NCBI RefSeq assembly: GCF_032062105.1
Contig: NW_026925150.1
Span: forward strand, 655 to 64,654
Length of the DNA stretch: 64,000 nucleotides
From: Saccostrea cucullata
Lineage: Eukaryota
Reading direction: 5' to 3'
Part shown: in pieces, positions 42,274 through 49,661 of the stretch
Position numbering within the stretch: position 1 is the first letter of the stretch
How the letters are laid out: each line of letters begins with the position of its first letter
Made by a program: the position numbers and the translations under genes
Notes under the pieces: model-generated
What the model saw: only the letters and a program-made list of their open reading frames with translations
The model's database searches: none
What the model was told of the DNA's origin: nothing

Positions 42274-42911
42274 TTAAAGACCATCCTGACCTGATATGGT
42301 GGAAAGTTCATATTGTTCATCAGGACGATACTTTCTTTGGCTTTCTTTGAGACGATGGAATAGGAAAAGGAAAAAGGCGTGTAGAATTAATCCTGAAACA
42401 GTTAAAGCAATAATTCCATAAAAGTACCAAGCACCTTTGCCATTTGTAACTATACACCAAAATACGACAATAGCAATATTTTCTATGTAGTAAAAAATGT
42501 AAAAGGTAGCAGTGAGTTTATTTTTGTTGCTCTTCTCGACATTCTCAAACAACTTGTATTTGCAAAAGAAAAAAATATTTGCAAAACTTCCTAGCAATAA
42601 CAACATTTTTTCACGCCTAGTTTGATCTTTGTCTAAAACTCTATTTTTACAACTTGCAGTGATAGCTATTACAAATGTGATAGCAATATGAACAGCAAAG
42701 CAAATGGCAGAATACATTCCTATTTCAGAAACAAGCAACGCTAAAAGCATAACTCTTGGTCCAATTTCTGCAATGCGTGATAAAAAAGACACTATTTTTG
42801 TCGGTAAAGTGAGCTTTCCAGTGTCTCCTTTCTCAACGTCATGTTTAAAGTTGTACATTGATTTTGCAATTCCCAGAGCAGATCCAGCCAGTGCAAAATA
42901 TCTGATGTATT
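42274..42911 (-). CDS. XK-related (XKR) membrane protein, exon 3 (terminal)
   Basis: Acceptor 'tgcttctttgtag|aatacatc' (plus 42912-13 'ct'). Encodes '(K)YIRYFALAGSALGIAKSMYNFKHDVEKGDTGKLTLPTKIVSFLSRIAEIGPRVMLLALLVSEIGMYSAICFAVHIAITFVIAITASCK...WYFYGIIALTVSGLILHAFFLFLFHRLKESQRKYRPDEQYELSTISGQDGL*'. Several hydrophobic helices. Aligns to the XKR8 region after the ETAPQ motif. Confidence 0.6.
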
Positions 42912-44888
42912 CTACAAAGAAGCACATTCTTAATACATCATGATTTATAAAGGCAAGATACGAATATTGTTTCATTCAGATGACATAAAGCACATGCATA
43001 GCCCACAAAGATTTTGAAAATGTGATTTTGGAAAAAAAAATACATAATATATCTGAAAACCAAAGTGAGCGACGGCTGGAAAAACTATTTTCTACAGGGA
43101 TCGAATAACCTCCTGAATTTGAGTTATTTTCCGGCTTTAGGGGTGGGCCGACTGTGGTTTTATTGTGTGAAAACTACCATTGCGAAACTCTTCATTTTTA
43201 TACCATATATAACTTACATTAACTTCAGCGTATATGCAAAATTTGGGAAAAATCTATAGTCCAGGTATTCTTAAGGGACTGTCTCAAAATACAGGTAAAT
43301 TTACTATAGGATTATATACTTTTTAGCACTTTAGAGCGTATTGTACAAATACTACAATAGCCTATTTGTTAAAACTATAATATATCATATAATTTTAATA
43401 TTATTTTAATCATATATTCAAAACCCTCTGATTGGCTTTACATTGGTCACATGATTAAGAATATAACAGAATATAGACTTCAGTTACTATTTAAAGAATC
43501 TGAAATGCATATCAACTGGATGTTTTTTTAAATGGAGGTAATTTTCTGTAAAACAAAAAAAATTAATAGTAGTGATTTTCACAATAATAGCTAATACAGT
43601 ATAAAAAAATATATTTCAACTTGTAAGTAAGTAAGTAGATATTTTATATTATAGTGACATGTGGATAGACAACAAGTAAATACAATATAAACGTATAAAG
43701 ATAGCGCATATGATGGATATTATATTAATTTGATTGAAGTAAATATTTTTGCCTTAGTGAAAAACATAAATTTCAAAATTTGGCAGTTTGTCTCTGATGA
43801 TTTTTCATTTTAATGTTTAAATTTTCAAATGGAGCTACATTTCTGTTTAAATCAACATTATGAAAAAAAAAGTTTCTCTAATATTTTTGTAGATTTTACA
43901 ATGAAATAAAAATGTATTTAAATTTGTAATGTTCTGTAACTGATAAGACGTAGCAATGGTCTGATTTAGCTAATACCTAATATTAGAACATATTGAATAT
44001 CTTTATCAAAACTGATACAAAAGATAATTAGAAAGATGTACATATGTAGTTTTTTCAATTAGGAAATCCTCTCAATGACTCAAAAATTGAAAAGGAAACA
44101 CATGTACATGTATAGTAAACAGCTAAATCTATTTTATTTTTTTATTTTTAGTCTCTAAGTGTTTAAGAGAGAAAATTTTTGGTTTGATCCCATTTTTCAA
44201 ATTGTATTTTATCAACCTCTGCAAAAAATAATAAAACAAATAAAGCCCTTTAATTCTGGCAATCCATAGATATATCAACCTCAAAGAAAAGCATATTGAC
44301 TTCGCTCTTCCTGCTCGGTCAATATGCTTTTCTGTGAAGTCGATATATCTATCTCATCAGAGGGCTATATTTATATAATGAGTAATACTACATTGTACAT
44401 TATATGTAAGAAACACAAAATTCTACGTCTTGTTATCAGAGGGGGCATCTCAAAATGCAAAATTTGACAATTTTCCTGTTTTTATAGAGTACTTCAAAAA
44501 TATAACAGGCAGAAGAAATTTATAAAAGCATTTTCAAGAGCATATGCTTATTACTTTTTCTTTAAAATATTTTATTACCCATTGAAGAGCTTCAGTTTAT
44601 CATAACGTCAAAAACACACTATAACGACGTCAACTTACCCGTCAATCGCAAAATCGGTTAAAAAAATCAGTTATATAAAATTATACTTACATTTTTAAAC
44701 CTGTTATTCTTAAGCTTGTTTAATCTTTTTAACCAAGTATGATGCGCGAAATATTTTGCAATGAAAACCAAAGTCGGCCCCCTTAAGTAATTTGTGTAGA
44801 ATTCAATAAAGTACGAGGTTAATGACGTCGGAATTCCAGAATTGTCCTCCTTCATGCAATATTCTTACATGATTCATAATATTCTCAA

Positions 44889-44892
<4 letters not shown>

Positions 44893-44946
<54 letters not shown>
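44893..44946. repeat. (TA)27 microsatellite
   Basis: Perfect run, immediately upstream of the tRNA-like fragment. Confidence 0.95.
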
Positions 44947-44947
<1 letters not shown>

Positions 44948-47120: not shown

Positions 47121-48893
47121 TTTCTAAAAATTAAGACAAGAAACATGTATTGACGTAAGCGTCAAAAATCGGCCGCAAACCAATTAATGTTCCTTTTATG
47201 AAGCAACTAAAGACTATGGTGGTCTGTTTTTAAAATATCTTATATTTATCTTTTAATATATATCCTCGTGATATTAAAAGCTTGTGCTCTACATTGCATG
47301 ATTTTCTTAATTATATAATGCATGTTCAACTCTGCGTCAACAACTTTTGAACCGTGGGCCTGTATGGCATTTGCATTAAAAGTTTAAAACTAAAATTAAA
47401 TGTAATCTACAACTAGATATGCAGTGTAGTTTAATTTAATAAAAATGCAGCAAATATGTTGGTATCCTTGCTCTCTCTTAGAGGAAAAAACTAAACTCCC
47501 TCTAGATCCGCCACTTCATTTCTTCTCTTTGAGTTGTAGCGGGAAAATTCTTGGCACATTGTAAAACGTGCATTATCCTCGTCTGCTAAGGGCCGAATCT
47601 TGTAATATTTTGTAGCCTGCTAAGTCTTTTAATGAATTTACATTTAACCATATTTTTCAAAATGTTTATATGTGTACATATGTACACGTCATTTTAAAAT
47701 AAATACGTACAACAAATCCCGTTTGAATAGACAAAGTAAAATTGTGTAATATACATAACGCGGTCTTTGATTTAGACTACGCCCAACACATGTCTTAATT
47801 TTCTCCGCACTTCAAACATAACTAAATCTCTAAGTCAGTATTGGATGAATTATTTACCTCATTCTTCGTAAGAATTTTTAATTTTATGTTTATTGTGCGT
47901 TTTTCTTTAACCTTAAGACCGTCTTTTTAATATACTATTATATTAATGTTAAATATTTTTATTTAAATTGTTTTAACTCCGCAGAAACGCACATCGACTT
48001 CGAACTTTCATATCATATAACCGACCATCTCCTGGCGGCCGGTAATTTGTCATCAATACAAAAATATAATTATATACTCCTGATATATGTAATCTATTTA
48101 ATATTTAAGAATCTATAATATAAATTGAAATATTCATTGCGGATCAAAAATCCATTAATTATTTAAATTTCCCTCTAATATATATAACACTTTTTCTTGC
48201 ATTGTAATTTAATGAAATGACCCATTTGATATAATTATATTGAATTATTTCTTGATAGTAAAAACATAATAAAGGGGAGTAATCAAATGTTGAACCCGCG
48301 TTTGATTGGTTCGTTTGTATCTTGAATCTCGAAACTCGAATTTTGAATCTCGAATTTCGAATTTTGAATCTCGAATTTCGAATCTCGTATTTGGAAACTC
48401 GAATCTCGAATGAGCCTTCTGGGCTTTCGTAGTAAGAAGTTCAAATAGATATTTTTTTTTAATTTCTACAAGCAAATTTTGACATTTAAATGAACTATTT
48501 TTGTTTATTTGCATATTTTTATTTTTTTCAATACATCCTTGGTAAGTTAATTAGGCTAATTATATCAATGCTGCAAATCTACAAACAAGTTTAGAGTAAA
48601 GTTAAATCTATAGTGACTCAAAAGGATCAAAGTATTAATTATTGTTAAATATAGTAAACTATACATGTAGATAACTTTAGTATATTTTTGTTGGGGTATT
48701 TATTAGAATTCAATTTTTCTAGGTGGCGTGGGCTTTTTTACGGTAATATAATTTGATTTGAATGGTTTTTTTTAATGATTTATCATATTCAGAGGTAAAG
48801 TACACTAAGGGTTCATTAAGATGAACACTAATGCTATTTTTTTTTTAAATGAGTCAAATTTAAACATATTCATTAGAATACATTTTAACTTAC

Positions 48894-49063
48894 TAGTACT
48901 TGTCTCTTCCTCTTCTGTACTGCCTATGTTGATATAAATTTGAACAATTATTTGTGGTGCAGACTCAAACGTTGTTTCAATCAAACCCAATAAAGATGCC
49001 AATCTAACCAGATCCCCTGTCTCTTCGTCTTCTTCTGGCCCCCTAGCTAGAACTATTGTCAGC
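48894..49063 (-). CDS. XKR gene, exon 2 (contains the XK-family '(F)ESAPQ' motif)
   Basis: Acceptor (sense) 'ttttattttatcag|gctgac'. Encodes '(V)LTIVLARGPEEDEETGDLVRLASLLGLIETTFESAPQIIVQIYINIGSTEEEETST(K)'. Donor 'acta|gtaagtt', phase 1, matching exon 3. Confidence 0.6.
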
Positions 49064-49211
49064 CTGATAAAATAAAAAAATTAATTTGTCTACTACAAAA
49101 GATGATCATTACACTAAACCTCTTAACAATATCCATGTAAAACAATTTTAAGTGATAATTGCGCATTTTCTTATTTAAATAAAAGGAAGTGAATCTTTAA
49201 AAAACCGCTTA

Positions 49212-49661
49212 CACAAATAGTTGAAGTAACGGTGAGAGGAAAATACAGAAGAGGAAAATCTTCATCTCCAAGGGATCTTTATTTTCTCTTGTGACCATTA
49301 TCGTCGTTAATGCTAGCACATTTGCAAAAACTGGAAGTCCCGTGAATATTAGAGATAGAATGAAATTATCAATGCTGCTCTCACGCCAGTAAACGTATAT
49401 AATATTGATGTCACTTGCAAGATCAACTAGAAAAAAAACAATTGTTATCAGTGTCCACGAAATATGCTTCGAACTGTCTTTCCAATTTTCAGCATATATG
49501 CAGTTAACTTTTCCCTTGAATTTCTTTGACCAATAAATGTACGCTACAATACAGGTGATAAAAGTTACCGCAGCGACGGACGAGAATGTTATAATCAAGT
49601 CAATGGTAATAAACTTGAGGATTGAAGGACCTGTAATGAAAAAACAAAACATTTTCAACAT
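49212..49661 (-). CDS. XKR gene, exon 1 (ATG at 49661..49659)
   Basis: ORF 49209..49661(-): 'MLKMFCFF...TLITIVFFLVDLASDINIIYVYWRESSIDNFILSLIFTGLPVFANVLALTTIMVTRENKDPLEMKIFLFCIFLSPLLQLF(V)'. 'VDLASDI..Y' corresponds to the XKR 'LDLGTDLW..Y' motif. The proposed donor 'ttt gt|gtaagc' is in phase 2, which joins exon 2 in frame. My own base count and the ORF track differ by 1 bp inside the a-run near 49440, so this donor position may be off by 1. Confidence 0.55.

Follow-up and report, generated by a model that had tools for sequence, protein, structure and literature searches.

What kind of gene carries an intron into which inverted-repeat elements appear to have settled one inside another, and is such a gene still intact? 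The question is raised by a locus on the minus strand of a 64,000-nucleotide stretch of the oyster Saccostrea cucullata (contig NW_026925150.1, positions 655 to 64,654 of the forward strand; hereafter the window, in whose own numbering all positions are given), where an XK-related (XKR) gene occupies 42274-49661. We consider it very probable that this is an intact oyster (family Ostreidae) XKR gene, situated within a cluster of HSP70-12A-like genes, and that its intron 2 has grown to 6 kb by successive insertions of cut-and-paste DNA transposons. The structures described in an earlier note on this DNA were all recovered within ~10 bp of where it had placed them, and chance was excluded for each. 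The gene model comprises the following parts.

49661-49213, minus strand: coding exon 1, 449 nt, from ATG 49661 to the donor GT/GTAAGC; the start codon is uncertain
49064-49212, minus strand: intron 1, 149 bp, GT..AG, phase 2, acceptor TTTATCAG
49063-48894, minus strand: coding exon 2, 170 nt, with the invariant LGLIETTFESAPQII block and the donor A/GTAAGT
42912-48893, minus strand: intron 2, 5,982 bp, GTAAGT..TTTGTAG, phase 1, acceptor TTCTTTGTAG, containing the transposon nest
42911-42274, minus strand: coding exon 3, 638 nt with the stop codon (42274-42276) counted, encoding the domain's C-terminal half plus a short tail

The joined coding sequence is 1,257 nt long and encodes 418 amino acids followed by a stop codon, with both introns of the GT-AG type. 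The earlier note had proposed three exons encoding ~419 residues with splice phases of 2 and 1; the phases agree with the exon lengths of 449, 170 and 638 nt, and the exons and their GT..AG sites stand, whereas the exon count is unproven at the 5′ end. Both introns are corroborated by the gap-free alignment to S. cucullata proteins and by an uninterrupted 449-aa open reading frame (ORF; P0002) on a 1,785-nt Logan contig, which is therefore taken to be a transcript; the protein alignment of the oyster homologues runs without a gap over both junctions (LQLF/V/LT and EETST/K/YIRY, with slashes marking the split codon). A tblastn search with all homologues returned exactly these three coding blocks in the window, and neither a further XKR exon nor an XKR paralogue. 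At the nucleotide level, positions 646-749 of the transcript contig L001 correspond to 49006-48903 and positions 759-1271 to 42911-42399; because the nine unaligned bases of L001 match 48902-48894, the exon 2/exon 3 junction at 48894/42911 is exact.

The encoded protein matches the Pfam family PF09815 (XK-related) with 122.3 bits (E=2.9e-35) over residues 69-393, covering profile positions 2-333 of 337; the curated gathering cut-off is 24.8 bits and the remaining Pfam matches are noise. The earlier note had suggested this search as a check on its family assignment, and nearly the whole profile was matched; the XK motifs that it had recognized begin at residue 79 (VDLASDI) and residue 182 (FESAPQ). 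Four database relatives, 48-75% identical, all match PF09815 and are collinear with the gene over both junctions. All relatives found are oyster sequences, namely three proteins of S. cucullata itself (P0001, P0003 and P0004; 58-75% identity) and one Logan transcript contig. XKR structures in the PDB were not found by single-sequence phmmer, for which the subfamily is too divergent; that search gave chance matches to cytochrome oxidase subunit 2, which were set aside, and XKR chains emerged only with a five-sequence profile, which matched XKR4 (9boj_B) and XKR8 (7dce_X) and no other structure, each at E ~8e-5. Judged by sequence comparison, membership of the XK-related family is established by the PF09815 match together with the profile matches to XKR4 and XKR8, although the subfamily is divergent.

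The XKR fold consists of eight transmembrane helices and two re-entrant helices. Hydropathy analysis of the oyster protein indicated a hydrophobic helix that precedes the Pfam domain (residues 22-40), then ~8 more segments of hydrophobic character and, at the C-terminus, a tail of ~27 aa; exon 1 thus encodes both the N-terminal hydrophobic helix and the start of the XK-related domain, VDLASDI included. With other XK-related proteins (vertebrate XK and XKR4/8/9, and CED-8 of C. elegans) it has in common a full-length domain, a multi-pass hydrophobic profile and an ESAPQ-type motif, but it differs from them in an N-terminal extension of ~65 aa that places an additional hydrophobic helix before the domain, and in its short tail (~27 aa) without DxxD. 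In XKR8, XKR4 and XKR9 an autoinhibitory tail is released by caspase; no DxxD caspase motif was present in the 418 aa, and a tail of that kind is therefore not evident here. Family membership suggests that the protein, like the characterized XKRs, may act in phospholipid scrambling or lipid transfer at the membrane.

Intron 2 contains an element bounded by long inverted arms.

45864-48431, unstranded: outer long-terminal-inverted-repeat (long-TIR, ‘foldback-like’) non-autonomous DNA transposon, 2,568 bp
45864-46237, plus strand: its left inverted arm, 374 nt, with a subterminal 7-bp array at 45884-45976
48054-48431, minus strand: its right inverted arm, 378 nt, with a subterminal 7-bp array at 48319-48411

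The existence of a 2.6-kb foldback-like element with inverted arms in this intron had been recognized in the earlier note; two of its dimensions needed correction, the arms measuring ~375 bp rather than 400 bp and the period of the subterminal repeats being 7 bp (higher order 14/21) rather than 12-13 bp. Aligned without gaps, the arms match over 361 nt at 96% (45864-46224 with 48071-48431), and with gaps over 378 columns at 94.4%. For the terminal 23-mer the window has exactly two occurrences where 0 would be expected, and the inverted homology breaks off sharply at TACGAAAGCCC... on either side. An 8-bp direct repeat, TAGTAAGA, abuts the ends of the element (45856-45863 and 48430-48437); since the TA at the tip may be counted with the arm or with the duplicated target, the target-site duplication (TSD) is 8 bp or, alternatively, 6 bp (GTAAGA, 45858-45863 and 48432-48437). 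The subterminal arrays each contain 13.3 copies of the 7-bp unit ATTCGAG in 93 nt, with a 14/21-bp higher order, begin 20 nt from the tip and are mirrored in the two arms; these repeats are presumably transposase-binding sites. The interior of the element held no ORF of note. Sharp ends, a flanking duplication and short repeats near the tips are the features by which a non-autonomous cut-and-paste DNA transposon is recognized.

Like Drosophila Foldback (FB) and other long-TIR elements, the outer element combines long arms with short subrepeats in tandem, has no capacity to code for protein and is flanked by a duplicated target. However, its arms make up only ~29% of its length, the tandem repeat occupies just 93 bp per arm with a 7-bp unit, and the direct repeat measures 8 bp (or 6 bp), whereas the TSD of FB is 9 bp. 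Because the direct repeat is not 9 bp and most of the arm is not tandem, we do not file it as a member of the FB family. Comparison with hAT elements also showed a difference, as the tips TACGAAAG do not match the YARNG rule. Helitrons are not known to have either terminal inverted repeats or a flanking direct repeat, and an origin as a Helitron or Helentron was rejected on account of inverted repeats that reach the tips and of the direct repeat that flanks them.

Two further elements lie inside the outer one, and the innermost belongs to a MITE (miniature inverted-repeat transposable element) family that recurs in the window.

46257-47146 (ends approximate), unstranded: middle element, 850-890 bp, with interrupted inverted arms
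46586-46864, plus strand: innermost GC-rich MITE, 279 bp, with ends CAGGGGCGGGTCCAGG...GCCACTG and TSD ATTTC (46581-46585 and 46865-46869)
14126-14687, plus strand: second copy of the innermost MITE family, 562 bp, with its GC-rich core duplicated internally and TSD ATTAC (14121-14125 and 14688-14692)
47501-47516, minus strand: solo terminal fragment AAGTGGCGGATCTAGA, belonging to the TIR group of the innermost MITE and situated next to the nest, within the outer element
14126, 34268, 46586, 47501 (minus), 50967, 55372, 60151 and 60365 (minus): sites of the terminal motif CAKKSGCGGATCYAGR

The three-level nesting proposed in the earlier note was thus recovered in position (the outer element at 45864-48431 encloses the middle one, which encloses 46586-46864), with changes to the two inner levels. 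Its inner TIR element of 830 bp exists as an inverted-arm element, but measures 850-890 bp; the GC-rich repeat reported within it is likewise present (46586-46864), but is a transposon in its own right, of which another copy lies at 14126-14687. The middle element begins ~20 bp inward of the end of the left outer arm. Its core TIR pairs 46275-46343 with 47062-47124, a second pair joins 46408-46434 and 46992-47018, and a gapped alignment extends to ~46257 and 47146.

The 5-bp TSD of the innermost element, together with an independent second copy that carries a TSD of its own, proves that this level arose by transposition. The termini CAGGG (46586) and CAGTG (46864, reverse complement) fit 5′-YARNG, as do those of the 14126-14687 copy. 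The terminal motif CAKKSGCGGATCYAGR has 8 sites in the window, where 0.21 would be expected, and marks an abundant MITE group, which includes a complete but core-less relative of ~230 bp at 60151-60380 with imperfect 5-bp flanks (GTAGG and GAAGG). Both 5-bp and 6-bp TSDs have been documented among hAT lineages, hAT5 being defined by TSDs of 5 bp (PMC12730594; the 5-bp lineage is credited to Kapitonov & Jurka 2007, as cited there). Two independent 5-bp TSDs and YARNG-type termini therefore make the innermost element fit the hAT5 type. It resembles hAT5-type MITEs in being short, non-coding and multi-copy, with YARNG termini and a 5-bp TSD at both of its two copies, an assignment that draws on the termini and TSD length alone; this and the other superfamily placements in the nest should accordingly be read as probable. 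The GC-rich, hairpin-forming core distinguishes it from the related copy at 60151-60380. L002 and L003, public contigs that are unrelated, also carry the core and the left terminus; they were selected by an exact core match, so that core conservation there is by construction; the core was not found in viral contigs.

As a separate observation on this core, the segment 46640-46720 contains perfect short hairpins, CCAGGGC-AAA-GCCCTGG and GGGGC-GAA-GCCCC. The former stem appears to retain its pairing in L003 through changes on both sides.

According to the history that we propose, a 1.7-kb non-autonomous element with ~375-bp arms and subterminal 7-bp repeats would first have entered intron 2, duplicating 6-8 bp of target. 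An inverted-arm element of 850-890 bp would then have inserted into the central region of this outer element, followed by insertion of a 279-bp hAT5-type MITE into the middle element with duplication of 5 bp. The transposons would be passengers, removed with the intron at splicing, and the large intron would serve as a tolerant site. We infer this order of insertions, and likewise the functional neutrality of the nest. DNA elements, including MITEs, are over-represented in bivalve genomes (PMC10294476), and nested DNA transposons in an intron are therefore to be expected.

Several results weigh against this account of an intact gene with a transposon-filled intron. The 5′ end of the gene model is uncertain: an acceptor-like site, tttttcattacag/GT, lies at 49633/49632, and the N-terminal motif of the homologues (MNxSQxNxT) was not found within 14 kb upstream by regular expression, BLOSUM window scoring or blastn-short against the 5′ end of L001. 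The missing DxxD means that the activation mechanism of XKR8 is not simply transferable to this protein. An AlphaFold model of the homologue P0002, built from a 4-sequence alignment, reached a predicted local distance difference test (pLDDT) score of 41 and was unusable as support for the XKR fold. Among the elements, the middle one showed no matching direct repeat at any of the boundaries that could plausibly be drawn, and it does not recur in the window; for the outer one, neither the 64 kb nor, searching by terminus, a metagenome collection yielded another copy, the collections searched containing essentially no oyster DNA. For both the outer and the middle element, a single copy is thus the basis for the family status, the precise ends and the length of the TSD (6 or 8 bp).

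The alternative that survives best concerns the 5′ end, where at least one additional exon is possible, though we consider it unlikely. Here, the true start of the first exon in our model would be set by the acceptor at 49632, the residues MLKMFCFFIT would be translated intron (its polypyrimidine tract), and the gene would have at least four exons. The segment 49650-49632 reads as a textbook 3′ splice site (ttttgttttttcattacag/GT), the context of ATG 49661 is poor, with t at -3, similarity to the homologues begins only at 49634, and the N-terminus common to P0001 and P0002, MN(I/A)SQ(K/E)N(E/R)T, is absent from the window gene. On the other hand, the 14 kb upstream contain no mini-exon resembling MNxSQxNxT; two 12-nt matches to the L001 start region (52504-52515 and 56714-56725) fall in a dispersed repeat; and the frame from ATG 49661 supplies 10 residues before the conserved TG, compared with 9 in the homologues, with the TG residues aligned. 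The repeat responsible for those matches is the following.

52440-52580 and 56650-56790, minus strand: dispersed repeat ...caaggtcacagagtcaaaaagtcatga...caggtaatatgaatgccctttcattt..., sharing 12 nt by chance with the start-codon region of the homologous transcript

That the gene is instead a decaying paralogue, a pseudogene in a fast-evolving lineage-specific family, is improbable. Its best database match is only 64-75% identical, the conserved N-terminus of the homologues is missing, and P0003 and P0004 probably lie on one 98,864-bp S. cucullata contig, which suggests tandem paralogues with turnover. Against decay, however, a reading frame of 418 codons is intact through three exons and all four splice sites are canonical; the 80 invariant alignment columns, including the LGLIETTFESAPQII and AKSMYNFKH blocks, are all kept as well (80/80), which follows by construction of the alignment.

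We regard as highly improbable a third alternative, in which the 2.6-kb ‘foldback’ is a local inverted duplication or an assembly artefact rather than a mobile element. It would account for the occurrence of one copy only, with no match in the rest of the window or among the metagenome contigs, but this absence says little for collections with essentially no oyster DNA. Moreover, the inverted homology ends sharply at both tips, with the direct repeat TAGTAAGA on its flanks, and short repeats in a subterminal position are typical of the regions that transposases bind; an assembly fold-back would not yield arms diverged by ~5% with other insertions between them.

The arms of the outer element, folded as an RNA hairpin, reached -530 kcal/mol compared with -140 +/- 5 for shuffled-arm controls, and in the minimum free energy fold of the whole element 357 of the 378 arm bases paired arm to arm. 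The weakest alternative, that this hairpin is functional, with a ~375-bp double-stranded stem in the pre-mRNA feeding Dicer or ADAR or modulating XKR splicing, has this stability over the shuffled controls in its favour but is very improbable, as any long-TIR transposon within a transcribed intron would have the same property and the arms are already ~5% diverged with no sign of constraint. The remark in the earlier note that hairpin-prone introns can affect splicing and are hotspots for rearrangement is a general one. A broader proposal can be given no more credence: it holds that the oyster XKR paralogues might be a subfamily specific to their lineage, marked by an additional transmembrane helix at the N-terminus and by the lack of a tail that caspases could cleave; this subfamily would sit inside an expanded HSP70-12A stress-gene cluster and be regulated unlike XKR8, the 375-bp intronic hairpin giving double-stranded RNA (a substrate for ADAR or small interfering RNAs) that would tune expression.

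The XKR locus is an ordinary oyster gene; an XKR paralogue, a long-TIR transposon and hAT5-like non-autonomous transposons are all of known kinds, and nothing about them is unexpected. It adds one XKR paralogue to the oyster gene set and its importance beyond annotation is small. As a clean worked example, it documents DNA transposons nested three deep in a bivalve intron, and with the two 5-bp TSDs, repeat libraries gain a usable definition of the abundant CAGGGGCGGATCCAGG-type MITE group. The long hairpin would be of consequence only if RNA data were to reveal editing, small RNAs or splicing effects.

Intron 2 holds several smaller features outside the nest.

44266-44352: palindrome with 35-nt arms, 91% complementary, and a 17-nt loop
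44892-44946: (AT)27 microsatellite
45323-45391: (CT)34 microsatellite

No RNA gene was called by the Rfam gathering score across the window, by Rfam at E<=1 in intron 2, or by ARAGORN. The Rfam matches within intron 2 were confined to sub-threshold, low-complexity, microRNA-like ones at the microsatellites and the palindrome. A tRNA-like segment at ~44965-45062 (minus strand), picked out by eye for its D-arm and T-arm motifs as a possible head of a short interspersed nuclear element (SINE) or a tRNA relic, was called neither by ARAGORN nor by Rfam at E<=1 and was rejected. At the other end of the gene, a 106-bp direct tandem duplication (49880-50093, 2 copies, 96%) lies upstream of the putative XKR start codon at a distance of 220-430 bp, in the presumed promoter or 5′ region.

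The surroundings of the XKR gene contain coding blocks of HSP70-12A-like genes.

20606-20986, 26261-26572 and 27400-28257, plus strand: HSP70-12A-like coding blocks
34240-35434, plus strand: HSP70-12A-like coding block
14894-15217, minus strand: HSP70-12A-like coding block

Together these are exons of at least 2 or 3 genes. In a homology search, the block at 27400-28257 was 69% identical to the S. cucullata ‘heat shock 70 kDa protein 12A-like’; the exons were not detected by the Pfam HSP70 profile, and a PDB search was also without match. The earlier note had called the XKR gene the only non-HSP host gene in the window. This holds insofar as its flanks are HSP70-12A-like and the other scanned ORFs of at least 70 aa are transposon-related (RVT_1, DUF3504) or repeat-derived, but falls short of exhaustive proof. 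Between the HSP70-12A-like genes, an ORF with a DUF3504 match (PF12012, E=2.2e-14) at 33215-33691 on the plus strand, with 32885-33196, is probably a mobile-element remnant or a domesticated gene. RVT_1 reverse-transcriptase fragments (E=4.3e-11) at 62434-63998 on the minus strand point to the remnant of a retroelement at the window's right end.

Tandem repeats are also present. Five arrays (5279-6039, 38455-39522, 53425-54406, 56934-58113 and 9719-10308) have monomers of 142-168 bp in 4-7 copies with 79-92% matches, and resemble the satellite-like arrays of non-autonomous Helentrons in Crassostrea gigas (PMC7492417). A 21-bp minisatellite at 11475-12188 comprises 33.6 copies with 90% matches and gives rise to spurious long ORFs (NRLYDLI... 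repeats) in several frames.

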